Shown here: positions 307 through 14,881 of the stretch, in pieces | Layout of the letters: every line of letters starts with the position of its first letter | How positions within the stretch are numbered: position 1 is the stretch's first letter | Assembly: GCA_046597055.1 (NCBI GenBank) | Contig: JBKJLC010000208.1 | Location: forward strand, 1-15,175 | Reading direction: 5' to 3' | Source: Kofleriaceae bacterium | GTDB taxonomy: Bacteria; Myxococcota_A; Polyangia; Haliangiales; Haliangiaceae | Length of the DNA stretch: 15,175 nt | Position numbers and translations under genes: made by a program | Notes under the pieces: model-generated | Databases searched by the model: none | What the model saw: the letters and a program-made list of their open reading frames with translations, nothing else | Told to the model about the DNA's origin: nothing

Positions 307-1554
307 CTACGCACGGCGCGCGGCGGCCTTCAATTGCCGCCCGCGCCGAGGTGGATGAACCTTGACCAGTGGTCGCAGGCGCTGGGCCCATTCGAAGCGG
401 AGCTCGCGGCTGGCGGACGTCGTGACCACCCTTAGCCAGCCGATGAGGAGGTGACCAAACCAGACGCGGTACGTCGCCATGTCCAGCGGCTCGAGTGCGA
501 CCGTCTGGAAGGCCAGCGCACCGCTGATGAACGTGGACTCGCCACGAAAGAACACCTGACCGCGATTGCCGAGACGCCGTTCCGCGGCATTGCGAGGTTT
601 CGGCGGCTTGTAGTGCGGGCTCCAGCGTCGCGCGCTGCGCTTGTAGAACGCGGCGGGCGGACGTTGGCCGAGGGCCTCGTGGGGGCGGTGGTGGTTGAAC
701 TCGTGCCGCCAGCGGTCGAGGACCGCTTGCTGCGCGCGGATGTTGAGCATGCGTGAGGTCTCCACCTCGTTCGCGATGTCGGCATGCATGCGTTCGTGGC
801 CGCCGTTGTCCTGCGGCTTTGCCGGCCGCGTGTGGTGGACCTGGATGCCCAGCGACCACCACCAAGCCGACAACGCCGTGAGCCCAAGCGGGTTCTGCGT
901 GGTGCCGAACGGCGGCCCGTTGTCGACGAGGATTGCCTTCGGTGACCCATGTGCCTTGAACAGGCGGATGAACCTTGCCCGCACCGATTCGGTGCGCGTG
1001 TCGGGCAACGCGCGCAACTCCAGCACGAAGCGACTGAAGGCGTCGCGGACGCTGAGTGGCTCGCAGCGCGCCTGGTCGCCGGTCCGCCACCAGCCCTTGA
1101 AGTCGACCGTCCATAGGTCGTTGGCGGCGCGGACGTGGACAGGCAGACGGCCGCCGTCCGGCTCCGCGAATGCTCGCCGCGTCCGCTTCACCGCATGACT
1201 GAGGCCCGTCCGCGTCAGCACGCGCGCGATGGTGTTGAGGGACGGCGCCTTCCCATGAATCGCTTCCAACAAGGGCTTCAACTTCTTCGGGCCCCACGTC
1301 GGATGCGCCACTCGGAGCCGGACAATCTCCTCGACCACCGTCCCCGCGGTGGCATGCGGTGAGTCGCGCGGGCGACGCGACTCGTCCTCCAGGCCCGCTA
1401 CTCCCAGCTTCTTGAAGCGGCCTATCCATTTGTAGCCGGTCTTCCGGCTCACCGCGTACTCGCGGCATAGGTCTGCGATGTTCGCGTTGGGCTCGAGCGC
1501 CCTGAGTACGAACTCTTCCCGATGCTTCATGGTGCAACACGTTTTCCAAGTCAT
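307..1554 (-). CDS. IS481-family DDE transposase (HTH + rve integrase core), 415 aa
   Basis: N-terminal HTH (IADLCREYAVSRKTGYKWIGRF...GLEDESRRP), HPTWGPKKL, catalytic motifs LWTVDFKG, ILVDNGPPF and PQDNGGHERMH, and C-terminal FNHHRPHEALG. GAGG lies just upstream of the ATG. Reading frame is intact. Confidence 0.96.
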   Translation of the reverse strand: MTWKTCCTMKHREEFVLRALEPNANIADLCREYAVSRKTGYKWIGRFKKLGVAGLEDESRRPRDSPHATAGTVVEEIVRLRVAHPTWGPKKLKPLLEAIHGKAPSLNTIARVLTRTGLSHAVKRTRRAFAEPDGGRLPVHVRAANDLWTVDFKGWWRTGDQARCEPLSVRDAFSRFVLELRALPDTRTESVRARFIRLFKAHGSPKAILVDNGPPFGTTQNPLGLTALSAWWWSLGIQVHHTRPAKPQDNGGHERMHADIANEVETSRMLNIRAQQAVLDRWRHEFNHHRPHEALGQRPPAAFYKRSARRWSPHYKPPKPRNAAERRLGNRGQVFFRGESTFISGALAFQTVALEPLDMATYRVWFGHLLIGWLRVVTTSASRELRFEWAQRLRPLVKVHPPRRGRQLKAAARRA

Positions 1555-1943: not shown

Positions 1944-3146
1944 TCAGTTGCAGAGCGCGTGGGTCGCGTGCGAGCTGGGCACGTCGGCGATCCAGGTACA
2001 GATGTCGTTCCACATCGAGGTGCGGAAGCGCGCGCCGGCGTTCAGGCCGTTGGCCGGACCGTAGTGGACGGCGAGGACCGCAGGCGCGCCGTTCAGGTAC
2101 GTGTACAGCGCGCTGCCGCTGTGACCGTCGGAGGTGTCGATGTCGTACTCGAGCCGGCCGTCGCTGGTGAAGGCCGCCGAACCCAGCGAGCCGGTGTCGC
2201 CGTACATCCAGCCGTCGCAGCGGTCGTCGCTGCGCGGCGACGCCTTGCACTGCTGGTTCGAGACGAGCCCGCAGTTCATGTTCGGGCCGCACGGATAGCC
2301 GCGGTTGTAGGCGAACTTGCCGCTGTACGACGCGGCGCTGTCCCACCACGCGATGCCCATCCAGCCCAGCGCGGCGTTGTCGGCCCGGTTCTCGAGGTAG
2401 AGCAGCGCGTAGTCGAACCGGCGCGCGACCCGCCAGTCGCGCAGCATCACGCCGCTCCACTTGCGCGAGGCCCCCCCGTTGGTGATCGCCAGGTTGGTCT
2501 GGCCCGGGTTGAAGAAGCCGCTGGTGGCGATGGTGCCGTCCGAGCCCATCACGCAGTGCGCGGCCGTGAGCACGTGGCGGGGGCCGACCATCGTGCCGGT
2601 GCAGCCACCCGACTGGGTGTTGCCGCTGCCGCTGAGCGAGCCGATCGTGCGCAGCGGGTAGGCCTCCAGCTCCGAGACCGTGCTGAACCGCACCCGGCGA
2701 TCGCTCGCCAGGGTGCCGCCGATGATCACGTTTGACCCGAGGGTGTCGAGCCGGTCGGTGCCGTCCGGATCGAACGCGCCGTGGTCGGTCGCGGTCGGGG
2801 TCGCCATCGGGCGCGCCTCGGCGAAGCGACCGTACGCGGTGCCGTCGCCGGCCACGAACAGCGCCGCGTAGCGGCGACCGTCGCGCGCATGCCAGGCCGG
2901 GTCGGCCGCGGCGCGGCTCGCGAGGGCCTCGCCCTCGAGGGTGCGATCGGCGGCCGCGGCGTCATCGGCGGCCACCTGTGCGCGGGCGGCGCGGGCCGGG
3001 GCGCGCTCCCAGCCCAGCTCGAGCAGGCCGGCGCCGTCGGTGAAAGGCTCGGCGGGCTCGCTGGTCGGCGCCTCCGTGCATGCGGCGAGCGCAGCAAACA
3101 GGGTGGCGGGCAGCACAGCAGAGCGCAGCGAGATCGAGAGCTTCAT
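1944..3146 (-). CDS. Trypsin-like (S1B/V8 glutamyl-endopeptidase-type) serine protease, predicted lipoprotein, 400 aa
   Basis: Signal peptide with lipobox LAAC (Cys23); a low-complexity Ala-rich pro-region; catalytic-triad motifs GCTGTMVGPRHVLTAAHCV, FDYALL and DTSDGHSGSAL; AGGAGA RBS upstream of the ATG. Confidence 0.92.
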   Translation of the reverse strand: MKLSISLRSAVLPATLFAALAACTEAPTSEPAEPFTDGAGLLELGWERAPARAARAQVAADDAAAADRTLEGEALASRAAADPAWHARDGRRYAALFVAGDGTAYGRFAEARPMATPTATDHGAFDPDGTDRLDTLGSNVIIGGTLASDRRVRFSTVSELEAYPLRTIGSLSGSGNTQSGGCTGTMVGPRHVLTAAHCVMGSDGTIATSGFFNPGQTNLAITNGGASRKWSGVMLRDWRVARRFDYALLYLENRADNAALGWMGIAWWDSAASYSGKFAYNRGYPCGPNMNCGLVSNQQCKASPRSDDRCDGWMYGDTGSLGSAAFTSDGRLEYDIDTSDGHSGSALYTYLNGAPAVLAVHYGPANGLNAGARFRTSMWNDICTWIADVPSSHATHALCN

Positions 3147-3391: not shown

Positions 3392-6300
3392 ATGACGAAT
3401 CGAAGGTGGACGAGAGCGGCCGGTGGCGCCGTCGGTTGGCTCGGCGTCGATCGAGTGGCAGGCGCGCTCGCGCGGGTGCCTCGACGGGCGATGCCCTGGT
3501 TGCTGGCGCTGCTGGTCGCCTCGTGTGCGGCCCCGTCGAACGACGACGTGGTCGCCACCAGCGCGCAGGCGGTGATGTTCGAGCAGCCCACGCAGTGCAG
3601 CGCCGCGACCCTGAGCGGCACCTGCCGCGGGCCGTGGGCGTATCAGCTGTACACGACGCCGTGCTGGGCCTACGCGAAGAACGCCGCGTGTGGCCAGCGC
3701 TGGAGCAATGGGTGCCAGCGCGACGCCAGCTGCTTGCACACCGAGACCGGTCTCAGCGCGCAGCGTGAGCGCGCGGTCACCATGACGTGCCGCCAGACCT
3801 CGAGTGGCACCACCTGCAGCCGATCGCTCGCGCTGCGCTGCCTGGACGTCGGCAACGGCTTCCTGGCCAGCGCCCTGACCACCAACCCACCGGTCACCGC
3901 CACCATGACGCGCGCGCTGGTGGGCAGCGTGACCCGGAGCACGGAGGACATCTCGTTCGGGGTCTTCCTGCACGAGTACACGCAGACGTGCCGGGCCACG
4001 CTGACCAACGCCGGCGTCGGCCCGCATCCCGTCTGCGGCCAGGAGACGTACCGCTGCCGCGTCAACAACACCTGCCGGACCGAGGCGAACGGCGAGGCGC
4101 CGCTTGGCGAGTGCGGGACCGACCCGACCTGGCACAGCCGCGATCCCGGTCGCAGCTACCCTCAGCTGCAGGCCGAGCTGCCCTACCTGGACCCGACCCG
4201 CGCGGACTGCTCGACGCTCGAGCCCCAGCCGGTCGACGCGACCCGCCTGGCCACCACGATGGCCCGCTTGAACCCGCAGGATCCGTTCTGGACGACCCTG
4301 CCAGCGCCGCCCGCGCAGGAGGCCGAGGCCCGGCAGCACCTGGCGCGGAACGCCAAGCTCATGTTCGAGCTCGGCCACGCCACGACCGGTATCAGCAGCG
4401 ACGCCGTGCGCGCGCTCTACGCGACCCCGGCTGACCAGCACACCTGCGGGGTCTCGGCGGTGGTGCCGGTGACCGACAGCTGCCGCGCGTGGGGCGCCAG
4501 CGCCGGCCTCGCCGGACCGATCGGCCTCTGCCAGCGCATGCTGTCCGATCACGTCGCGCCGGCGCGGTTCGACAGCGAGCTCGATCGCTGCCTGGATCTG
4601 CTCGCGGTTCCCGCGCTGGCCGGGTCCGACCCGTGCGCCGTCGAGCACCGCGACGTGGTCGAGGCGCTGGCCGAGCGACTGCTCGCCAAGGCCGACCCGT
4701 TCACGAAGCCGCCGGGGACCACGGCGGTCCTGGGCCTGACCGCGGCGCTGCGCCACATCGACCGCTGGTATGCCGGCGCGGCGGCGGCGCACGTTCGCGA
4801 CCCGGCCGTGCTCGCCGATGCGACCGGCCGGGTGTTGTCGCAGTTCTGGACGCGCGTCTACCAGGCCGGCGCGGCCGCGCCGGTGGCCTTCCCCAGCGCC
4901 GCCGACGGCAGCGAGGCGACCCGTGCGCAGCTGGCGCAGCTGTTCGCGCTTCGCCTCGAGGTCGAGCGCCAGGTCCTGAACGCGGCCTTCGCGGACCCCG
5001 CGCCGCTCGACGAAGCGCCGCTGCTCCTCGTCACCGCCGACGCGCTCACCAGCCTGAACGAGCACCTGCGCACCGCCGCGCCGCTGTACGACTTCGCCTG
5101 CCGCGTCCGCGGCCGCTGCGACGTCGGCGAGGCCAACGAGGCCACGCGGCTCATCCGCCTGATCGGCGCGCTGGGCAACGACGCGACCCTCGCCGCCGCG
5201 CTCGCCGGCGCCGAGACCGTGCGGGCCGACTGGCGCAGCACGTTCACCGCCCTGCGCGCCCGGCGCGGCGCGCTCGAGACCGCCTACCGCAAGGCCAGCG
5301 ACCGCCCGGCCGCGACGCTCGACGAGCTGCACAGCGCGAGCGTGGTCCCCGCCGCGGCCGGCCTGGCCGAGCTGGTCGTGGCCGGCTCGACCATGTGGCA
5401 GAGCTACGCGAAGACCGGCGAGCTGTTGCCGCGCGACGGCAACCTGATCCGCGCCAGCCTGTCCGATGCCAAGCGCGCCGCCACCGCGACCCAGTTCCGG
5501 CAGCGCGGCGAGGGCCTGCACCAGGCCCGCCAGGAGTACCAGCTCACGCGCGGCACCTTCGCCAACACGGTGCTGGAGCTGCTCGCCGCCGCGCAGTACC
5601 AGGGCCGCCTCGATGCCGAGACGCGCGCCCTGCGTCGGGACTACGACAACGTGGTCAGTGACCTCGAAGGCCTCATGGCGTCCCAGGGCCACGCCGACCG
5701 CACGCTCGGCTCGTTCATGGCGCGGTATCTCGAGCGCGCCAGTGCGCCCGGCTGGCTGCCCAGCTATCCGATCGCAGGCGAGTCGCACCTCATGCAGGTC
5801 GGCGCGATCGCGGCGCGGTCGGCCGGCGCGATCGCCACCGTGGCGGCCGTGCCCGCCGTGGCGGTGCTGGCGCCCGACGGGGCCGCGCCGTGGCAACTGG
5901 CGATGGGCAAGGGCGACCTGCTGAGCTTCAACGTCAGCGGCTCGTGGGCACCCTCGTGCGCGCTGCGCAGCACGACCCTGGCCGGCCCCACCGGCACCAC
6001 CACCGGCTTTGTCGATCCCACCGGCGCGCTCACCGGACCCGAGGGCTACACGGTGTCCTGGGAGAACGGCCGCTTCCGCGCCTCGGAGCACTCGAGCAGC
6101 GACTTCGCGTCGCAGAGTGACAGCACCAGCGTCTGCGGCAGCGTGAGCGCGGACCTGCTCACGGTGCTGAACGGCGCGGTGCCGGTGGGCTCGCTGTCCG
6201 TGACCGCGTCGAAGTGTCGCCAGTGGCAGACCGGCCACACCGAGAACGACAGCACCAGCAACGGCGCCCGGTTCGCGTACGGTGCCAACTTCGCCGGCGG

Positions 6301-7831
6301 TCTGCGCATCCCCGGCACGCCGTTTCCGCAGCTGCCCGGGGCCAGCCTCCTGCTGGTCCAGGTCATCGAGCGTGCCGATGGCCCTCACATCCGCGACGTG
6401 CAGGTGGTCGGTCGCGACGCCACCTTCCTGTTTCCCGAGGCGGTCACCGTCTACCTGGTCGTCAACGACCGCGCCGGGTGCACGCCCCTCGACGGCAGCC
6501 AGCTCACCGTCAACTACGTCAAGGGTCAGTCGGTCGCTGCCGCCTCGCTCACCTTGGCCACCGCGATGGCCGACGTGCTCGCCCGGCTGACCGTCGAGGC
6601 GTCGCTGTACGTGGCGCAGGGCTCGGTGACCGGTGCCGAGCTGGCCGCGCTCCAGGTGGCGGCCTACGACCAGCTCCGCGTCGGTTGTCCCGACTGCAAC
6701 CTGGCCGCGAACGAGGAGGTGCGCGCCATGTTCGACGCCTGGCTGTCTGCCCAGCTGGCCTCGATCGAGCGCAAGACCCGCATCGCCAGCGCCCAGCGCG
6801 AACTCGACCGCCTGGTCCTGCGCCTCGCCGCGCTGGCCTCCGACGCCGCCGGCAGCGCCGACTCGCAGCGGCTGCTCACGCTGCTCACCACCTGGCAGCT
6901 CCAGCACCTGGGCTACCACCAGCTCCACGAGCAAGCCGCGCTGGTGCTCGACTACGGCAACAGCTACGTGCTGCCGATGCTGACGCTGCGCTACCCGCAG
7001 GCGCTCGCCATGCTGCGCGGCTCGTCGACGGCCGCCATCAACGGGTTGCGCACGGCCGACTGGACCTTGCCGTACGACGAGCTGGCGGTGCGGCTCGAGG
7101 TCCTCGCCGGCGCGGTGGCGGTGCGCCTCGACGAGGCGGTCCTGGTCGGCGAGGACTCGATGGCGCCGATCATGGTTCGCTTTCCCAAGCCTGACCACGT
7201 GGCCGCGCCCGGCGACATCGACTTCAACGTCGCCGACCCGGCCCGGCTGGCCGACGTGTGGGAGTCGTGCGCGCCGGTGAAGCTCGTGCGCGACCGCGAC
7301 GGCGTCGAGATCCCCGGCAGCAACGACTACTGCCTCAAGCCGCAGCCGGTGTTCACCGTCTCGCCCGAGGACCTGTACGCGGACCACGAGGCCGGCCAGC
7401 TGTTCTGCAGCGAGGCCGCGCCGATCGTGCGCGCGATGGCGTTCTTCGCGGCCAACCAGGGCCACAGCGGCAACGACAACTGGAACCGGGTGCCGCGTCG
7501 TCGCTTCGTGAAGCCGTCGCAGGACGTGATGTTCACCACCGAGCAGGGCGTGTTCGGCTACCGCGTGGAACGGCCCACCGGCATCGGCGTGCGCGTGCTC
7601 GCCGGCCGCGCCGAGGACGTCTGGACCGCGTTCCAGGACCACGCGCTGGCCGACCGCGACGTCGACGGCAGGTCGCCGTTCGGGACCTTCTCGGTCGACC
7701 TCGGCAGCTACGCCACCGACCACCGCGGCCCGGTCGGCGACGCCGATGCCATCATCGTCGTCTTCGACGTCGAGACCCGGGCCGCGCTCGGCCCCCTCGC
7801 CGGCGTGCGCGCCTGTGTAGCCGCGCCATGA
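3392..7831 (+). CDS. Large Cys-rich putative lipoprotein with coiled coils; candidate divergent Tc toxin A-like (pore/translocation) subunit, ~1,450-1,480 aa
   Basis: Long ORF with strong GC3 codon bias. Hydrophobic stretch and lipobox WLLALLVAS-C (Cys codon 3524-3526). About 20 further Cys in the N-terminal ~370 aa of the mature protein, a helical Ala/Leu-rich middle, two heptad-like segments, and C-terminal GRSPFGTFSVDL...DAIIVVFDVET. The start is uncertain (ATG 3392, GTG 3455, GTG 3476 or ATG 3491); the TTG at 3302 is unlikely. The CDS is solid; the function is inferred. Confidence 0.8.
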   Translation: MTNRRWTRAAGGAVGWLGVDRVAGALARVPRRAMPWLLALLVASCAAPSNDDVVATSAQAVMFEQPTQCSAATLSGTCRGPWAYQLYTTPCWAYAKNAACGQRWSNGCQRDASCLHTETGLSAQRERAVTMTCRQTSSGTTCSRSLALRCLDVGNGFLASALTTNPPVTATMTRALVGSVTRSTEDISFGVFLHEYTQTCRATLTNAGVGPHPVCGQETYRCRVNNTCRTEANGEAPLGECGTDPTWHSRDPGRSYPQLQAELPYLDPTRADCSTLEPQPVDATRLATTMARLNPQDPFWTTLPAPPAQEAEARQHLARNAKLMFELGHATTGISSDAVRALYATPADQHTCGVSAVVPVTDSCRAWGASAGLAGPIGLCQRMLSDHVAPARFDSELDRCLDLLAVPALAGSDPCAVEHRDVVEALAERLLAKADPFTKPPGTTAVLGLTAALRHIDRWYAGAAAAHVRDPAVLADATGRVLSQFWTRVYQAGAAAPVAFPSAADGSEATRAQLAQLFALRLEVERQVLNAAFADPAPLDEAPLLLVTADALTSLNEHLRTAAPLYDFACRVRGRCDVGEANEATRLIRLIGALGNDATLAAALAGAETVRADWRSTFTALRARRGALETAYRKASDRPAATLDELHSASVVPAAAGLAELVVAGSTMWQSYAKTGELLPRDGNLIRASLSDAKRAATATQFRQRGEGLHQARQEYQLTRGTFANTVLELLAAAQYQGRLDAETRALRRDYDNVVSDLEGLMASQGHADRTLGSFMARYLERASAPGWLPSYPIAGESHLMQVGAIAARSAGAIATVAAVPAVAVLAPDGAAPWQLAMGKGDLLSFNVSGSWAPSCALRSTTLAGPTGTTTGFVDPTGALTGPEGYTVSWENGRFRASEHSSSDFASQSDSTSVCGSVSADLLTVLNGAVPVGSLSVTASKCRQWQTGHTENDSTSNGARFAYGANFAGGLRIPGTPFPQLPGASLLLVQVIERADGPHIRDVQVVGRDATFLFPEAVTVYLVVNDRAGCTPLDGSQLTVNYVKGQSVAAASLTLATAMADVLARLTVEASLYVAQGSVTGAELAALQVAAYDQLRVGCPDCNLAANEEVRAMFDAWLSAQLASIERKTRIASAQRELDRLVLRLAALASDAAGSADSQRLLTLLTTWQLQHLGYHQLHEQAALVLDYGNSYVLPMLTLRYPQALAMLRGSSTAAINGLRTADWTLPYDELAVRLEVLAGAVAVRLDEAVLVGEDSMAPIMVRFPKPDHVAAPGDIDFNVADPARLADVWESCAPVKLVRDRDGVEIPGSNDYCLKPQPVFTVSPEDLYADHEAGQLFCSEAAPIVRAMAFFAANQGHSGNDNWNRVPRRRFVKPSQDVMFTTEQGVFGYRVERPTGIGVRVLAGRAEDVWTAFQDHALADRDVDGRSPFGTFSVDLGSYATDHRGPVGDADAIIVVFDVETRAALGPLAGVRACVAAP

Positions 7832-10800
7832 TCACGCGCCCGGCTCGATCCATCGCCGCGCTGGTCGCGGCGCTCGTGGCCACGTCGCTCGGTGCGCCGG
7901 TCGCCCTGGCCCAGTTCAAGGATCGCCTGGTCCAGCCACCCCAGCTGGCGGGGCCCGAGCGCGGCTCGGTCAAGGGCGCGCTGGCCGGGCTCGGCTTCGC
8001 GCCCGCCGAGCTCGCGCGCGGCGGGTTTCGCCTGCCGCTACCGGTGGTGGTGCCCGACGAACGCGGGCCGCTGCAGGCTGGCGTGGTGCCGGCGTACTCG
8101 CCCGACGGCGGCCACTCCGAGTGGGGCATGGGCTGGTCGTCGGAGAGCTCCATCCGGCGGTTCCGGATCCTGGGCGAGGTCGACTTCGCGACCGACGAGC
8201 TCACCAGCCCGTGGGGCCGGCTGCGCAAGGGCACCGACGGCGCCTACTACCCGACCGGCCTGGGCGCGCCGATCCGGCTCGCGCAGGTCGATGGCGACTG
8301 GGTCGCGACCAGCTTCGATGGCACCCGGTCCCGGTTCCGCGCCGCCGACGGCGTGACCACGGCGCGCGGCACGTTCGCGTGGCAGCTCACCGAGGTCACC
8401 AGCCTGACCGGCGAGCAGACCGTGCTCGCGTGGAGCAAGAATGCGTCGGGCCGTCCGTTCCTCGATCGCGTCACCTGGGGTGGCCGCGATGGCCACGCCC
8501 AGTACGAGCTGGCCCTGGGCTACGAGCGCATGCCCGGCGTGTTCGTCGACCATGCCTCGGGCCGCGAGCTGGTCCTCGACCGGCGAGTGACGTCGATCAA
8601 GATCTCGGCGCGGGACCGCACCAGCGGTGGGTTCGTCGAGCGCTGGCGCTACCGGCTCGACTATGCGGCCGCGCCGTTCGGACCGGCGTTCTATCTGAAG
8701 ACCATCCAGCGCGTGTTCGCCGGCGGCGAGACCCAGCCGGCGATGGTCTACGAGTACGACCTCGACGCCACCCGGCTGCCGGCGGCGCGCCTCGAGCGCT
8801 ACCCGGGCCTCGACGCCGCGCTGGCCAGTCTCGGCGACGACGCCTTCCAGCCCGACCGCGCGGCCATCCACGACCTCGACGCCGACGGCCGCCCGGATCT
8901 CGAGCACGCCGCCAGCTTCACGCAGCTTCGCCACACCGATGCCGGCTGGGTGCAGTCCGCGCTGCCGCCGGCAACCGGCACCAGCAGCAAGTGCCGCCCG
9001 CCCGTCAACGTCGGCAACAAGCCGCGACTCCTGGCCCGGCTCACCGCCGATCTCGGCGAGCCCCACGTGCTGTACACCGAGCTGCGCGGCGACGGGAAGT
9101 CGCAGGTGCTGGTGTGCGATCGCCTGGGCCGCCCCCTCGTCGACCAGCTCGTGGTCGGCGACTGGCGGCTCGGCCCCAACCTGCGCCTCACCGACGTCGA
9201 CCGCGACCGCCGGCCCGACCTGGTCCGGATCACGCCCGAGGGCGTCTACATCCTGCGCAACGAGCGCGACGGGCTGGGCGTGCGCTTCGCGCCGGTGCCG
9301 CGCTTCACGTGGAGCCTGGGCTTCACGCCCGACGCGAGCTGGCTGCACGACTTCGATGGCGACGGCAACGTCGACATCGTGGCCCGCACCAGCGGTGGCC
9401 TGCGCATCTACTACGGCCTCGGCAACCGGACCTGGGCCCCGACCGGCAAGCTGTTCGCGTTCGTCACCACCTCCGGCGCCACGCTGGGCAGCCTGAACCT
9501 GTACCAGCTGACGTTCGTCGACGCGAACAAGGACGGCCTGACCGACCTGCTGCTCAGCAAGGGCCTCGACACCTGGCTGTACACCAACCGCGGCAATCGC
9601 CTGGTCGAGGTGCCCGTCGCCGGCTTCCGCCAGGTGACCTGGAGCTTCGGGCTGCCGGTGGTGGCCGACCTGACCGGCCGCGGCAACGTCGAGGTCGCGT
9701 TCGCCGCGCGGGGGACCGCGCACGTCGTGCCGCTGTCCACCCCGGGGACCGGCCTCATGGCCAGCGCCGACGACGGCATGGGCTCGGTCGCGCGCTTCGC
9801 GTACACGCGCAGCCACGCGCACCCGGGCCTCGAGCAGCGGGTGACGCTGCTCGAGACGCTCACCGTTGAGTCGTCGGGCCACGACCCCGTCGGGTATGGG
9901 TACGAATACGGCCAGCCGGTCGCGCACAGCGTGAGCCAGCAGCTCATTGGCTTCACGACCACGCGGCGCAGCTCACCGCAGCTGGTGGAGGAGGTCGAGT
10001 TCCGCAACGACGACGACGCCGGCGCGGTGGTCACCGACACCCGCAGCATCGCCAGCGACGCGGCGCTGATGCGCTTCTCCGCCACGACCTACCAGGCCGC
10101 CGACTGGGCCGGCGTGCGCTTCCTGCGCACGGTCGGCGTCACCACCGGCGTCCGCGGGCTCGACGGCACCGGTGAGGTCGCCACCCAGGTCACCTACGCC
10201 GACTTCCAGCCGTCGCCGTGCCCCACCCGCGTGGTCACCACGACCGCGACCGGGACGCTCGAGAGTCAGACCGTGCTCGCCACCGTGCCCGCGTTGGCCG
10301 GCCTGCCGCACTGCACGCCGCACGCGGTCCAGCTATGGGGTCAGCACGCCCGTCCCGAGCTCGACTTCGCGTACGGCATCGTCATCGCGCGCAACGCGCT
10401 CGGCCAGCCGATCGCGATCCGTCAGCAGGGCGCGACCGCGCAGCAGCTGCTGCAGTCGGTCGACTACGACACCGCGCACCGCCCGGTGGCGATCATCCAG
10501 CCCGGCCTGGGCACCGCGAGCCTGCGCTGGGACCCGGACACCGGCCTGCTCGCCGAGGTGGTCGCCCCGGACGGCGTGATCACCAGCACCCGCGATCGCG
10601 ATCCGGTCACCGACGGCATGCGCGAGCTGGGCATCGACCGCGGCGGCCCGCCGTGGCTCCGGTTCTTCCGGCACGACGGCCAGGAGCGGCTTTGGCGATC
10701 GTGGGACGACGTCGGGGTGGCCAGCGAGGCGCAGCCTGACGTGGAGCTGACCTACGCGTTCGCGCGCCGCGAGGGTCCCGGCCGGATCGCGGTCCGGTCG

Positions 10801-13440
10801 CTGATCGCGCCCGGCCAGTACCACGAGACCGTGGACCTCACGTCGGCCAACGGCGAGACGCTGGCCACCCTGACGCGCCGGCCGGGCGCCTGGGCGGTCG
10901 ACGGGCTCACGACGATCGACCGCAACCGGCACGAGACCCGCGGCTACTGGCGAGCCCCGCTGCCCGGCCCGACCGACCTGGCGACCCTGGACTGGGACAC
11001 GCTGCGCGGCGGCGCCACGCCGCTGGCGCTGGCGCGGACCGACGCCGACGGCCAACCGCGCTACCGCGAGGAGACCGTCGCAGACGGCGTGAGCCACCGG
11101 GTCGAGACCCGCGAGTGGCTCGACGGCGCCACCCTCGTGAGTGGCGCGGTGGAGAACGACGAGCACCTGGTCGAGGTCGGACGTGATGCCAGCGGCCAGG
11201 TGCGCTGGTCGCGCGACCAGCTCGGCGAGCTCTCGCAGTTCGAGTACGACGCGCTCGGCCGCCTGGTCGACGTCACGCTCCCCGATGGCGCCCGGCTCGC
11301 GGTGCGCTACGACGACTTCGGCCGGGTCGCCGAGGTCGCGCGGGTGGGCCTGGCCACCCTTCGCTATCAGCACGACCCGGTCACCGGCCTGGTCGTGCGC
11401 CGGAGTGTCCACGACGGCGACGGGGTCCTCGAGCGCACGGTCGACTGGTCGCGCGACGAGCTCGGGCGGATCCGCGGCGAGACCCACGCGCAGCCGCGGA
11501 CCGGTCAGAGCCGCCAGCTCACGCTGCGCTACGACGGCCAGATCGACGGCGCGCTGGTCGCCGGGCAGCGGGGCCACCTGAGCCAGGTCACCGGCGCCGA
11601 GTTCGACCGCACGATGGTCTACCAGCGCGACGGCCGTCCCCTGCGGACGCAGCTCGCGATCGCCGGCTTTCGGCGACTCGAGCAGGGGTGGACGCGCTGG
11701 GACGACGGCGCGGTCAAGGACGAGACCTGGGTGGTCCGCGACGACGACGGCCAGGAACTGTACCGGCTGGTCGAGACCCGCGTCCACGACGCCTCCGGGC
11801 GCCTGGCCGAGGTGCGCGTCGACGGCGAGACCTTCGCGACGCTGGGGTACGACGGCGAGGGTCGCGTCGCCCGGGTCGACCTGGCGACCGGCGGCGGCGT
11901 GGTCTACCACCACGACCCGGTCACCCACGCGCGGAGCGGCTACGCGATCGACGGGGGCAGCTGGCACGCCGGCGTCGACTGGCTGGTCGATGCCCGGCGC
12001 AACGTGGCCAGCGAGACCATCGGGTTCGGCGATCAGAGCTGGCTGCGCCAGCACGAGTACGACCCGCGCAACGCCCTCACGCGCTCGCACGACCGCGACG
12101 GCGAGTCGCGCTACGAGTATGGGGCGACCGGCCTGCCGACGCGGACCCACGATCTGGCGGGCGACCGGGCGATCCTCCGCGAGGCGCGGTCGATCACCGC
12201 GGGCAGCGTGCGCTACGACCTCGACGCCTCCGGGCGCGTGATCCAGCGGGGCGACCTCGAGCTGACCTGGGGCCCGACCGGCGAGATCGACCAGGCGTCA
12301 CGGGGCGGTCGCACCTGGGGCTACCTCTACGACGAGCACGGTGCGCGCATCGCCAAGCGCGAGGGCGGCGCGGTCACCGCGGCCTTCCTCGGTGGTGCGC
12401 ACCTCACCGCCGAGCGGCTGATCGTGCCGGTCACGATCGAGGGCCAGCTGGTCGGCGCATGGGTGGTGAGCGCCGACGACAAGCGGTTCGAGCTGCTGGC
12501 CACCGACCCGCGCGGCACGCTGCTCGGCGAGCACGGCGCGCCCAACCTGCCGACCGCCTACGGCGCACGATCCCAGCGACCGGAGCTGGCGCCTGCCCTC
12601 GACTACGCGGCGAGGGGATACGACGCCGACCTCGGCACCGTGCGCATGGGCGTCCGCGATTACGACCCGTCGCTGGGGCAGTTCTGGTCACCGGACCCGC
12701 TCTTCCTCGAGGCCATCGACCGCTGCGCCGCGAGCCCGATGGAGTGCAACCTGTACGGCTATGCGGCCGGAAATCCGCTGCGCTACGTGGATCCAGATGG
12801 ACGCGAAAAGGCGGCCGTCGAAGTGGCGGTCAATATCTCCCTCGTCGATGACGCCGTGTACGAGAGCGCGGATGGCACCCTGACCGCGGGCACCTACGGG
12901 GCCGGGACCTCGAACGGAAACCTGGTCGCCCATCTCGGACTCCTCTCGAAGACGTGGAAGCTGGGCAACGGGTTCGAGGCGGGCGTGCAAGTCGCCGATG
13001 CCCAGGCTTCGCTGGGCGCCGATGGCGCGCACCTGAGCCTCACCGTCGTGAACGTCCAGGTCAGCCGCGAGGTCACCCAGGGCGTCAAGGCCGGCCTCAA
13101 CCTGGGGTGGACGGCCGGCGTGGGGGTGAGCCCGGACGGCGTGGTCAGTGCCAAGGCGGCGCTGGGCCTGGGCATCAACGTCGAGGTCGATACCGCCGAG
13201 CTGTGGGCGAACATGAACGGACATGGCCACCTGATGCCGCGGGAGTACCTCGATCCCCCCGTCGAGAACCACGACGAGCCGGAGCAGGCGCGCTGGGAGG
13301 GGGGCCGCGAGGTCGACGTTCCCGAGCGCGCGTCGCCGGCCCGCCGCGCGACCTCGCGCCCGCAGGAGCCAGCGCGGAGCCGCCAGGAGCTGCGCCACCG
13401 AGCGGAGGCCCGAGACTCCGCCCGCAGCGGGACGCGGTAG
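7828..13440 (+). CDS. SpvB/FG-GAP/YD-repeat RHS protein (TcB-TcC-like fusion) with Sec signal peptide and C-terminal cargo domain, 1,870 aa
   Basis: ATG at 7828 overlaps the upstream stop (ATGA). Signal peptide MITRPARSIAALVAALVATSLGAPVALA|Q. SpvB-like GFRLPLPVVVPDERGPLQ...YSPDGGHSEWGMGW. Five FG-GAP/VCBS-type motifs (DLDADGRPDL 8872, DVDRDRRPDL 9193, DFDGDGNVDI 9349, DANKDGLTDL 9520, DLTGRGNVEV 9667). YD repeats (FEYDALGRL, RYDDFGRV, GYDGEGRV). RHS core RDYDPSLGQFWSPDP...NLYGYAAGNPLRYVDPDG ending at 12801. Confidence 0.93.
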   Translation: MITRPARSIAALVAALVATSLGAPVALAQFKDRLVQPPQLAGPERGSVKGALAGLGFAPAELARGGFRLPLPVVVPDERGPLQAGVVPAYSPDGGHSEWGMGWSSESSIRRFRILGEVDFATDELTSPWGRLRKGTDGAYYPTGLGAPIRLAQVDGDWVATSFDGTRSRFRAADGVTTARGTFAWQLTEVTSLTGEQTVLAWSKNASGRPFLDRVTWGGRDGHAQYELALGYERMPGVFVDHASGRELVLDRRVTSIKISARDRTSGGFVERWRYRLDYAAAPFGPAFYLKTIQRVFAGGETQPAMVYEYDLDATRLPAARLERYPGLDAALASLGDDAFQPDRAAIHDLDADGRPDLEHAASFTQLRHTDAGWVQSALPPATGTSSKCRPPVNVGNKPRLLARLTADLGEPHVLYTELRGDGKSQVLVCDRLGRPLVDQLVVGDWRLGPNLRLTDVDRDRRPDLVRITPEGVYILRNERDGLGVRFAPVPRFTWSLGFTPDASWLHDFDGDGNVDIVARTSGGLRIYYGLGNRTWAPTGKLFAFVTTSGATLGSLNLYQLTFVDANKDGLTDLLLSKGLDTWLYTNRGNRLVEVPVAGFRQVTWSFGLPVVADLTGRGNVEVAFAARGTAHVVPLSTPGTGLMASADDGMGSVARFAYTRSHAHPGLEQRVTLLETLTVESSGHDPVGYGYEYGQPVAHSVSQQLIGFTTTRRSSPQLVEEVEFRNDDDAGAVVTDTRSIASDAALMRFSATTYQAADWAGVRFLRTVGVTTGVRGLDGTGEVATQVTYADFQPSPCPTRVVTTTATGTLESQTVLATVPALAGLPHCTPHAVQLWGQHARPELDFAYGIVIARNALGQPIAIRQQGATAQQLLQSVDYDTAHRPVAIIQPGLGTASLRWDPDTGLLAEVVAPDGVITSTRDRDPVTDGMRELGIDRGGPPWLRFFRHDGQERLWRSWDDVGVASEAQPDVELTYAFARREGPGRIAVRSLIAPGQYHETVDLTSANGETLATLTRRPGAWAVDGLTTIDRNRHETRGYWRAPLPGPTDLATLDWDTLRGGATPLALARTDADGQPRYREETVADGVSHRVETREWLDGATLVSGAVENDEHLVEVGRDASGQVRWSRDQLGELSQFEYDALGRLVDVTLPDGARLAVRYDDFGRVAEVARVGLATLRYQHDPVTGLVVRRSVHDGDGVLERTVDWSRDELGRIRGETHAQPRTGQSRQLTLRYDGQIDGALVAGQRGHLSQVTGAEFDRTMVYQRDGRPLRTQLAIAGFRRLEQGWTRWDDGAVKDETWVVRDDDGQELYRLVETRVHDASGRLAEVRVDGETFATLGYDGEGRVARVDLATGGGVVYHHDPVTHARSGYAIDGGSWHAGVDWLVDARRNVASETIGFGDQSWLRQHEYDPRNALTRSHDRDGESRYEYGATGLPTRTHDLAGDRAILREARSITAGSVRYDLDASGRVIQRGDLELTWGPTGEIDQASRGGRTWGYLYDEHGARIAKREGGAVTAAFLGGAHLTAERLIVPVTIEGQLVGAWVVSADDKRFELLATDPRGTLLGEHGAPNLPTAYGARSQRPELAPALDYAARGYDADLGTVRMGVRDYDPSLGQFWSPDPLFLEAIDRCAASPMECNLYGYAAGNPLRYVDPDGREKAAVEVAVNISLVDDAVYESADGTLTAGTYGAGTSNGNLVAHLGLLSKTWKLGNGFEAGVQVADAQASLGADGAHLSLTVVNVQVSREVTQGVKAGLNLGWTAGVGVSPDGVVSAKAALGLGINVEVDTAELWANMNGHGHLMPREYLDPPVENHDEPEQARWEGGREVDVPERASPARRATSRPQEPARSRQELRHRAEARDSARSGTR
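12802..13440 (+). other. RHS C-terminal (hypervariable) cargo domain, ~212 aa, unrecognised
   Basis: Follows the PxxxxDPDG autocleavage motif. Gly/Ala/Val-rich alternating beta-strand pattern followed by a charged, low-complexity tail. Confidence 0.8.
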
Positions 13441-14404: not shown

Positions 14405-14881
14405 TCACGGCAGGCTGGACAGGATCGCGTGCAGCACGTGCAGCGCGAGGTCGATCACGCCGACCACATCGGCCACGCCGTCCGCGTCACTCGTGGTCGC
14501 GGCGGCAGCCGTGGTCGCGAGCGCGGGCGCGAGCGCGGGCCCGGCCACCGGTCGGGTCGCGAACAGCACCTCCGAGAGCTCGTCGCGATCGAACCAGATG
14601 CCGTGGGTGCCGCACCGGTCGACCGGCTGACCGAGCAGGCTGCGTGCGGTCATCGGCCGGGTGCAACGCGGGCAGCCCCGGCCCGGGCCGGTGGCGACCC
14701 GGGCGTGCAGCAGCCCCTCGGGCCGGGTCCCGCCCTGGGGGATCATCGCGAGCATCATGTCGTCGAGATCCGCCATGGTGACCAGGCAGCTCCGGCACAC
14801 CGGGCACGCCAGCCGCCGGCCGGTGTCGTCGAGGGCCGCCGAGCAGCTCAGGCACGCGCGCCCAGCATCACGGTAGGCCAT
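14405..14881 (-). CDS. Tandem zinc-ribbon (zf-TFIIB-like) protein, 158 aa
   Basis: CLSC...CPVC and CPRC...VDRCGTHGIWFDRDEL, the latter typical of bacterial zf-TFIIB domains. Hydrophobic C-terminal tail. AGGAAAGG directly precedes the ATG. The 19-nt gap to the DUF547 gene suggests co-transcription. Confidence 0.82.
   Translation of the reverse strand: MAYRDAGRACLSCSAALDDTGRRLACPVCRSCLVTMADLDDMMLAMIPQGGTRPEGLLHARVATGPGRGCPRCTRPMTARSLLGQPVDRCGTHGIWFDRDELSEVLFATRPVAGPALAPALATTAAAATTSDADGVADVVGVIDLALHVLHAILSSLP

Follow-up and report, generated by a model that had tools for sequence, protein, structure and literature searches.

How is a SpvB-propeller-RHS toxin with a signal peptide delivered, and what does the unannotated lipoprotein gene coupled to it contribute? 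These questions are raised by two genes in a 15,175-nucleotide stretch of DNA from a Kofleriaceae bacterium (the window, by which we mean the whole stretch that was analysed):

3392..7831, + strand: gene 1, unannotated lipoprotein and proposed TcA-derived translocator (1479 aa, start uncertain)
7828..13440, + strand: gene 2, fused TcB-TcC-type cocoon with cargo (1870 aa)

A coupled gene pair with a Tc-type cocoon

An earlier sequence-only reading had described an unrecognised gene coupled to a cocoon gene, and we confirm this unit, including the ATGA overlap at 7828-7831. GC3 is 0.945 in both genes, as is typical of real genes in this DNA. The length of gene 1 is counted from ATG 3392, but its start is not settled between this codon, GTG 3476 (from which the signal would be short and its start basic) and ATG 3491 (the database call, 1446 aa). 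Gene 1 has no match in Pfam, NCBIfam, PHROG or PDB sequences. No plasmid match was found, and no RNA holder is listed. A family scan of the six main open reading frames of the window returned no holin, endolysin, VgrG or PAAR, bearing out the earlier statement that the window has none.

Gene 2 can be divided as follows:

7828..7911, + strand: Sec-type signal peptide ending ALA-Q, from the N-terminal sequence
7912..8778, + strand: SpvB-like N-terminal region, weak by Pfam and clearer by family profile
8779..9747, + strand: FG-GAP beta-propeller related to the YenB/TcdB propeller (domain match and family profile)
9748..12804, + strand: YD/RHS shell and Rhs core ending in the autoprotease motif PxxxxDxxG-R
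12805..13437, + strand: cargo tip of 211 aa, a Gly-rich amphipathic beta region of about 140 aa and a low-complexity tail, with no family match

The protein matches the FG-GAP, RHS and Rhs-core families. Pfam SpvB falls under its cut-off on the window protein (E 0.22), whereas the gene-2 family profile matches the N-termini of YenB, SpvB and TcdB1 (E 6e-8 to 4e-3), with E 6e-8 for the YenB/TcdB N-terminus and E 2e-8 for the YenB/TcdB propeller. The TcdB_toxin_midN and midC families, by which dbTC screens, have no match in the window protein, and midN appears under its cut-off in four of seven homologues. As in TcB-TcC cocoons, the RHS core ends in PxxxxDxxG, the autoprotease motif described in PMC7861908, and is followed by a hypervariable tip. 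These profiles and motifs identify gene 2 as a TcB-TcC-type cocoon that has a signal peptide and an exchangeable tip. The earlier reading set the Sec signals apart from canonical Photorhabdus/Yersinia Tc subunits, which lack them. However, the combination of signal peptide, SpvB, propeller and RHS was already listed in 2012, in the “TcdB/TcaC” class of Zhang et al. (PMC3482391), which has an integrin-like propeller, carries a toxin, occurs in delta-proteobacteria and includes gene 2. In the accessible portion of that paper the associated gene of the class is TcdB only, with no mention of TcdA and no partner like gene 1.

Delivery of gene 2 by a contractile system (T6SS or eCIS), with gene 1 a mere neighbor, is largely disfavoured and in our estimate extremely unlikely. 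Other contigs of the genome do encode PAAR and gp5/VgrG OB-fold proteins, but gene 2 carries a signal peptide in place of the PAAR match or linked VgrG of contractile Rhs effectors, a VipB sheath gene was not found in this 94%-complete genome, and the linkage to gene 1 is tight.

Gene 1 accompanies gene 2 across myxobacteria

The gene-1 family comprises 403 unannotated clusters at 50% identity. When loci were collected by gene 2 alone, gene 1 lay directly upstream (within 500 nt) in 44 of 57 and within the locus in 46 of 57, nearly all in named myxobacteria. Conversely, gene 2 adjoins gene 1 in 10 of 12 regions found via gene 1, a set that overlaps in part with the 57 loci. The linkage of gene-1 homologues to SpvB-RHS genes, proposed earlier as a check, is thus observed. 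Among 61 related genomes, eight have gene 1, seven of these eight also have gene 2, and 53 have neither. Seven gene-2 loci with upstream DNA do not have gene 1. In three divergent loci (L080, L082, L083) the upstream genes are Cys-rich and lipoprotein-like; we compared them with gene 1 and found them unrelated. We found no third gene conserved across genera beside the pair, and a profile search of the genome contigs with the close gene-1 alignment returned no relative. Based on this linkage, gene 1 is almost certainly a dedicated partner of the SpvB-propeller-RHS gene. The system is present in cultured strains of Myxococcus, Corallococcus, Sorangium, Archangium, Cystobacter, Hyalangium and Pyxidicoccus; there, homologues of gene 1 carry the names hypothetical, lipoprotein or PA14-domain protein. 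Judged from search listings, with subscription papers outside their coverage, no publication on the pair was found.

A lipoprotein with a TcA-like C-terminal half

Gene 1 was modelled as a monomer over 1199 residues (281-1479), confidently overall, and we divide it as follows:

3392..3526, + strand: lipoprotein signal ending at Cys45, by motif rule
3527..4231, + strand: Cys-rich N-terminal region, residues 46-280, 15 Cys, outside the folded model
4232..5416, + strand: alpha-helical shell-like region, residues 281-675, from the model
5417..5464, + strand: short linker, residues 676-691, 15-17 aa across the family
5465..5740, + strand: long descending helix of the channel-like hairpin, residues 692-783, from the model
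5771..6532, + strand: LecA/PA-IL-like beta-sandwich at the TcA tip position, residues 794-1047 (3zyb, Z 10.3, rmsd 2.8, 117/121 residues)
6050..6286, + strand: inserted beta-hairpin, residues 887-965, proposed beta-pore stem, with Ser/Thr-rich flanks, an amphipathic tip and Cys915 and Cys942
6539..7147, + strand: returning long helices of the channel-like hairpin, residues 1050-1252, from the model
7151..7828, + strand: C-terminal domain resembling a TcB-binding domain, residues 1254-1479, by structure comparison

The signal ends in LLALLVAS-C45. By a crude rule, a lipobox is found in 84 of 133 long homologues (strict; 5 of 133 internal control windows) or 97 of 133 (relaxed; 1 of 133); the strict rule overlooked the window's own 1446-aa call because the Cys is too close to that start. 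Together with a hydrophobic N-terminal stretch in 43 of the 46 gene-2 homologues examined, this supports the earlier view that both proteins carry export signals, which are conserved in their families. We also considered a release site after the lipid Cys, marked by the motif [QE][AEP][LVI], and rejected it because the signal is too weak (39 of 97 homologues against a shuffle mean of 18). Gene 1 has 33 Cys, and for 30 of these at most one of the close homologues that span the position lacks the residue. The shell varies among relatives by inserted lectin or propeller domains: of 13 mapped long homologues, eight have the extra domain near residue 348 and one near 460, and the insert types include ricin-B, PA14, NPCBM and fucose-lectin-like domains. 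A neuraminidase-like domain is absent from the modelled residues 281-1479 (residues 46-280 lie outside the model).

The C-terminal half suggests where gene 1 comes from. Residues 681-1464 match TcdA1 2011-2516 in the same order (whole model Z 8.3, rmsd 17), a score exceeded by a designed helical protein at Z 9.2. The best eight rows of a Foldseek search with the model are all TcA, none of them reaching E 0.001, and TcA is absent from the best 50 of a wide structural search with the whole model. The last domain was compared with 48,161 chains, and the best four all come from TcB-binding domains of TcA; it aligns with TcdA1 2327-2516 over 127 residues at Z 5.4 and rmsd 3.6, compared with Z 4.2 for generic jelly rolls. 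By Foldseek E-value picornavirus and phage chains rank above TcA for this domain, again with no row at E 0.001. Comparison of gene 1 with TcA profiles (Pfam, PDB chains) gave no sequence match, a viral fold library gave nothing at E 0.001, and the ESM Atlas gave no usable match. A complex prediction with three copies of residues 1254-1476 and the gene-2 propeller scored 0.00, without folded controls, and counts neither way. In the model, each protomer has two long helices before the last domain, as in TcA, and this domain weakly matches a TcB-binding domain. The C-terminal half therefore appears to resemble a TcA channel and TcB-binding domain, with modest scores, and we think it probable that gene 1 is a TcA-derived conduit.

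Tc/ABC toxins (Photorhabdus TcdA1-TcdB2-TccC3, Yersinia YenTc and TcaA-TcaB, Xenorhabdus XptA) share with this pair the BC cocoon of SpvB-like region, propeller, RHS, PxxxxDxxG and variable tip, and the partner layout of helical shell with variable binding domains, long helical hairpin and TcB-binding-like end. They differ in that here both parts have export signals and gene 1 is lipid-anchored, 1479 aa long and rich in Cys. According to the available text of PMC10317148 and PMC6795518, Tc toxins are mostly insecticidal and conserve the linker, helical channel and TcB-binding domain, the linker being long and unstructured between shell and channel. In TcdA1, the shell ends at 1972 and the aligned channel begins near 2011. 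In contrast, the linker is about 16 aa here, with 15-17 residues in 126 gene-1 sequences, and a LecA-like domain with a beta-hairpin takes the place of the alpha-helical pore-forming tip. The earlier proposal that gene 1 is a shorter, divergent TcA is supported by the C-terminal order of channel and TcB-binding domain, at modest scores, but the long linker is missing and the tip is of another kind.

A LecA-like tip with a candidate beta-pore hairpin

Between its two long helices gene 1 carries a domain of about 255 residues that shares the fold of LecA/PA-IL, PllA and EclA lectins (residues 798-1047; Z 10.3, 9.3 and 8.8 by fold comparison), at 16-18% identity and with large inserts. LecA ranked first when this domain was searched within the 1199-residue model, a scope that also applies to the fold comparison with aerolysin and protective-antigen cores. 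One insert is a hairpin of about 80 residues with 26% Ser+Thr (15% overall), whose Cys pair is kept in 98% and 99% of sequences. Both of its strands show alternation in 107 of 121 sequences (shuffle mean 29, maximum 41).

In aerolysin/ETX-MTX2 toxins and anthrax protective antigen, the flanks of a long hairpin are rich in Ser/Thr and its tip is amphipathic by alternation. The gene-1 hairpin shows the same pattern and is disordered in the monomer model, but unlike the hairpins of these toxins and translocases it forms an insert within a LecA-like fold that ends a helical hairpin of TcA type, and a conserved pair of Cys clamps it. As its pLDDT is below 50, a pore role rests on the sequence pattern; given a TcA-derived conduit, the hairpin is quite probably the pore.

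The hairpin might instead open the producer's own outer membrane, gene 1 being an export pore with a TolC-like helical barrel through which cargo is pushed out of a periplasmic cocoon. CsgG is a lipoprotein whose hairpins insert into the producer's own membrane. A lipid anchor, a helical barrel and an amphipathic hairpin of one bilayer length would fit, as would the lack of a recurring third export gene across genera. However, the variable shell lectins would then face the producer's own periplasm and exported nucleases would have no route into a target, and we regard this as very unlikely.

Gene 1 could also be both a tether and itself a pore-former, displaying the cocoon and damaging the target membrane. 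The cargo would then not be threaded through gene 1 but freed next to it, or passed on by exchange of vesicles or outer membrane. Some gene-2 homologues have no gene 1 nearby, nuclease tips have hydrophobic segments of their own, and the TcA scores are modest. Furthermore, the available part of PMC13018210 describes bacterial teneurin-like proteins, common in Myxococcota, as likewise Sec-exported YD-shell toxins with lipoprotein anchors; these differ in being single chains with FN-plug/NHL, described with neither an SpvB region nor a TcA-like partner. For a tether, a TcB-binding-like end together with a channel-length helical hairpin in TcA order would be superfluous, and gene 2 retains a TcB-type propeller. 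We consider this reading unlikely.

Cargo points to bacterial targets

Cargo tips and downstream genes indicate what the family attacks. A Pfam cut-off was passed by 18 of 52 tips and not by 34. Five tips are amidases, which belong to one syntenic Corallococcus locus and count as roughly one event, and five are PT-HINT; the others are colicin D, REase-7, NucA/B, Ntox10, Ntox30, papain-fold deamidase, M6 peptidase and DUF1308. No ADP-ribosyltransferase family matched among the 52. Of 39 small downstream open reading frames, five pass the cut-off (Imm35, Imm26, Imm27, ComJ and HEAT); a pairing of Ntox10 with Imm27 is reported in the consulted section of PMC3482391. Those 3' of amidase tips have signal-like N-termini, judged by eye. 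The hydropathy of a 19-residue segment is 1.59-2.16 in five nuclease-labelled and five HINT tips versus 0.61-1.34 in the five amidase tips.

Peptidoglycan amidase and nuclease cargoes, several of them with an immunity gene behind them, make bacteria likely targets, and bacteria are very probably among the targets of this family, although some members may also target eukaryotes. Unlike the Tc/ABC toxins, the family combines antibacterial-type cargo and immunity genes with a partner that has no sequence match to TcA profiles.

The window's own tip gave no match when searched as a single region, nor did its profile against the PDB; against longer proteins the profile found two RHS proteins, at least one of them probably an input sequence. 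Its first three ESM Atlas matches (0.90-0.92) are unnamed clusters, mostly Bacillota. No immunity-like gene lies 3' of it or after the similar tips in loci L027, L029 and L072. Most likely, this tip acts as a beta-sheet membrane-damaging protein.

Lectins of the LecA, ricin and PA14 types are best known for binding eukaryotic glycans. The LecA-like tip fold and the ricin-B, PA14, NPCBM and fucose-lectin-like inserts would suit a compact classical Tc injector against grazing protists or fungi, with the hairpin a spike or closure and not a pore; the lack of immunity-like genes after the window's and similar tips and the 34 unassigned tips are consistent with this. On the other hand, amidase, colicin D and REase tips together with Imm26/27/35 and ComJ are hallmarks of interbacterial toxins, none of the 52 tips matches an ADP-ribosyltransferase family, and gene 1 combines a short linker with a strongly amphipathic hairpin. 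Such an injector is distinctly unlikely, and the anti-eukaryote role suggested earlier gives way to cargoes and immunity genes that point more to bacteria.

A proposed mechanism and its implications

Our best explanation, towards which we lean slightly, is that the pair forms a Tc-derived injector that perforates the target membrane by a beta-barrel. It would be a two-gene polymorphic toxin system, often with an immunity gene, descended from Tc toxins. Both proteins would cross the inner membrane via Sec and fold in the periplasm, where disulfides would form, and gene 1 would assemble into a ring whose funnel holds the cocoon by its propeller. The complex may meet its target on the producer surface, on vesicles or once freed from the lipid, and shell lectins may bind surface glycans. 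The hairpins would then refold so that a beta-barrel spans one membrane, and the tip, once cleaved, would be threaded along the helical channel and on through the barrel. If the target is Gram-negative, cargo would arrive in its periplasm, where amidases could act, and nuclease tips would cross the inner membrane by their own hydrophobic segment. We infer the gene-1 oligomer, docking, surface display and killing as steps of this reading; the likelihoods given for partner, conduit, hairpin pore and bacterial target are rough and mutually dependent.

More tentatively, the system may be a hybrid protein translocase whose alpha-helical channel, of Tc type, leads into a beta-barrel stem. It would inject Rhs cargo across the outer membranes of other bacteria with neither contractile tail nor entropic spring, and would be Sec-only and lipid-anchored, with exchangeable lectins and cargo. 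The new part is gene 1, as the architecture of gene 2 was previously known, and its presence in cultured myxobacterial strains makes the system directly testable. The family retains two of three Tc features (linker, channel and TcB-binding domain) and exchanges the perforation device, and its targets appear bacterial. If true, our proposal would account for the delivery of one group of SpvB-RHS toxins with signal peptides and would make the pair a Tc relative directed against bacteria. It would also bear on TcA evolution and add a weapon for myxobacterial predation or kin conflict.

Organization of the gene pair and its export signals

The window is one complete contig of 15,175 bases from a host genome of 8.4 Mb and 72% GC. 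It carries these features:

91-195 and 1749-1853, outer 105-nt inverted arms (86%) enclosing the IS481 element
233-283 and 1572-1597, inverted repeats (20-22 nt) of the IS481 transposase
307-1554, minus strand, IS481-family transposase
1944-3146, minus strand, trypsin-like protease with a lipoprotein-like signal, divergent from gene 1
3392-7831, plus strand, gene 1, 1479 aa
7828-13440, plus strand, gene 2, 1870 aa
13474-14385, minus strand, DUF547 protein, converging on gene 2
14405-14881, minus strand, TFIIB zinc-ribbon protein, converging on gene 2

The sequence-only reading had described an unrecognized gene 1, coupled to gene 2, with export signals on both products, and these points hold. 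An ATGA overlap joins the two genes, and gene 1, single-copy in the host genome, has no match in Pfam, NCBIfam, PHROGs or PDB sequences as a single sequence or as a 126-sequence profile. By motif rules rather than SignalP, both products begin with an export signal. Of 133 long gene-1 homologues, 97 have a lipobox under such a rule (84 under a stricter one), versus 5 and 1 among internal controls; by eye, many of the negatives seem to be cut short at the N-terminus, and a few carry a cleavable-type signal in place of a lipobox. For gene 2, 43 of 46 homologues have a hydrophobic stretch ahead of the conserved start, again by motif rule rather than SignalP. A gene-1 subgroup of about 1285 aa (P0034, P0036, P0051 and P0118) has a cleavable-type signal, no lipobox and just 18-21 Cys, and is possibly a freely secreted form. 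The DUF547 and zinc-ribbon genes lie outside the two-gene system, and the protease has no homologue among the neighbors of other loci.

Gene 2 belongs to a known class of cocoon proteins

Gene 2 matches FG-GAP, RHS and Rhs-core models. A seven-sequence family profile matches the N-termini of YenB (E 6e-8), SpvB and TcdB1, with teneurin-like and Rhs proteins ranking first overall via YD repeats; for a 50-sequence propeller profile, fungal propeller lectins rank first, followed by YenB, TcdB1 and TcdB2 (E 2e-8 to 2e-7). The core terminates in PLRYVDPDG-R, of the same Asp-x-Asp-Gly-Arg type as the TcC cleavage site in the available text of PMC7861908. Because the “TcdB/TcaC” class, as outlined in the accessible part of PMC3482391, has the same series of signal peptide, SpvB, propeller and RHS, this architecture was already known. 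In the literature listings we found nothing on the gene 1-gene 2 pair; some of the loci could already be listed in dbTC or in the additional file of PMC3482391.

Linkage and distribution of the pair

The C-terminal 843 residues of gene 1 retrieve 403 clusters at 50% identity (E up to 0.001). A scan with gene 2 only, from whose 222 confirmed stretches the 80 best were kept, gave 57 loci, mostly named Myxococcus, Corallococcus, Sorangium, Pyxidicoccus, Archangium, Cystobacter, Hyalangium, Kofleriaceae, Haliangium or other myxobacteria, plus two Oligoflexus and one labelled Comamonas. Gene 1 lies at most 500 nt upstream in 44 of these 57, within 3 kb upstream in one and downstream in one; four have less than 1.5 kb of upstream DNA, and in seven gene 1 was not found in the locus. 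Among these seven, L034 belongs to a tandem array that follows gene 1 of L052, L028 is on the same contig as L037, and L080, L082 and L083 are divergent, with upstream genes unrelated to gene 1. In the reverse direction, gene 2 adjoins gene 1 in 10 of 12 gene-1 regions (8 downstream, 2 upstream) and the other two stop at a contig edge, which bears out the expected linkage to SpvB-RHS genes. No third gene recurs across genera beside the pair. The system is patchy, not core: among 61 related genomes gene 1 occurs in 8, gene 2 in 7 of the same 8 and neither in 53, and among 151 genomes sampled across the phylum both occur in the same 2.

Several loci vary this arrangement. The L052/L034 contig has a single gene 1 and, behind it, at least four gene-2 copies in tandem that differ in their tips and are separated by small ORFs, and therefore one translocator may serve several cocoons. 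Upstream of the L080, L082 and L083 cocoons lie a beta-helix gene and a gene for a Cys-repeat, lipoprotein-like protein of 1087-1333 aa that is not related to gene 1, and here the cocoon may have a different delivery partner. In the Oligoflexus loci (L079:605-6856, L075:6443-9889) gene 1 is reduced to about 1150 aa, and in L079 the match to its Cys-rich N-terminal part falls in a distinct gene further upstream, much as TcaA and TcaB are split. A close homologue, L017:3124-11999, has the two genes divergently arranged, with no single operon, and in L076 and L081 (also L023, L037 and L057) the genes are broken into several frameshifted pieces, by decay or assembly error.

Gene 1 resembles the C-terminal half of TcA

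An AlphaFold2 model of residues 281-1479, built from 58 sequences (pLDDT 87, pTM 0.71), is predicted to contain:

281-675, helical region
between 675 and 692, 16-residue linker
692-783, helix of about 92 residues
794-1047, beta domain
1050-1252, long helices
1254-1479, C-terminal beta domain

In Foldseek all top eight rows are TcA chains (best E 0.011, TM about 0.1), with no row under E 0.001. On realignment, residues 681-1464 follow TcdA1 2011-2516 in order (Z 8.3, rmsd 17); a designed helical protein reached Z 9.2, on the shell part. For the last domain, folded separately (pLDDT 92), four TcA representatives lead 48,161 chains (Z 5.4, 5.3, 5.0 and 4.8), followed by jelly rolls (Z 4.2 or less); Foldseek places virus and phage chains ahead by E-value and TcA highest in probability (0.35-0.57) and query TM (0.24-0.33). 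The single scores are middling, and it is jointly with domain order and linkage that they support remote descent of gene 1 from the C-terminal half of TcA.

The claim that gene 1 is a divergent TcA stands in part. The TcA-ordered channel and last domain argue for it, but gene 1 departs from TcA in linker, helical tip and sequence, so we do not file it as a TcA even though it probably acts like one. Its shell-to-channel linker has 15-17 residues in 126 sequences, whereas that of TcA is long and drives insertion, according to the portions available of PMC10317148 and PMC6795518. Between the long helices the model places a LecA/PA-IL-like sandwich (Z 10.3, rmsd 2.8, 117 of 121 residues; PllA Z 9.3, EclA Z 8.8). 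Inserted in this domain is a low-confidence hairpin of about 80 residues with 26% Ser+Thr (15% overall), in which Cys915 and Cys942 are conserved at 98% and 99%. Both strands alternate hydrophobic and polar residues in 107 of the 121 sequences (from 126) that have both Cys; 200 shuffles gave 29 on average and at most 41, with the caveat that the sequences are related and not independent. Stems of beta-pores are Ser/Thr-rich hairpins that alternate in this way; we take the gene-1 hairpin to follow that pattern, its amphipathic strands of ~10 residues presumably matching one bilayer.

Among 27 homologues picked mostly for length, 13 show PA14, ricin-B, NPCBM, CBM6, DUF346/fucose-lectin-like or FG-GAP matches, some below cut-off: eight near residue 348 of the window protein, one near 460 and four N-terminal, placed like the binding domains of the TcA shell. 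The window's own protein is without such a domain. One homologue (L021:10221-15281) has a proprotein-convertase P-domain insert.

Proposed mechanism and cargo

We lean toward a mechanism in which gene 1 would oligomerize, carry the cocoon on its funnel, bind glycans, insert a beta-barrel and conduct the cleaved tip. This presumes that so large a lipoprotein complex can reach the surface. That gene 1 is instead a tether plus an independent pore appears unlikely, and that its pore serves export across the producer's own outer membrane doubtful enough to rank lower still. Contractile delivery of gene 2 we consider very improbable: PAAR and gp5-like genes are present elsewhere in the host genome, but VipB was not found there.

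Gene-2 tips are 159-377 aa long, and 18 of 52 scanned pass the Pfam cut-off: Amidase_2 in five (all one syntenic Corallococcus locus), PT-HINT in five, and colicin D, REase-7, NucA/B, Ntox10, Ntox30, papain-fold deamidase, M6 peptidase and DUF1308 in one each; Fic and PIN matches fall below it. Most tips have, by eye, a small same-strand ORF behind them, and 5 of 39 scanned pass cut-off (Imm35, Imm26, Imm27, ComJ and HEAT). The Imm27 gene follows the Ntox10 tip, a pairing given in the accessible part of PMC3482391. A classical anti-eukaryote Tc toxin is, in our estimate, a rather improbable account of the system. A hydrophobic segment (26 of 51 tips reach a hydropathy of 1.5) is present in tips labelled nuclease or HINT and absent from amidase tips, a split that would fit one-membrane delivery into the periplasm.

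The tip encoded in the window matches no family. Over its first 140 residues it is rich in Gly and shows strong alternation (z 4.7; 0 of 500 shuffles), as do the similar tips of L027, L029 and L072, chosen by eye (z 3.8-4.9), compared with z 0.6 or less in five enzyme tips; none of these four has an immunity-like gene behind it. From this pattern we read the window tip as a putative beta-sheet, membrane-damaging cargo, whose target may be bacterial or eukaryotic.
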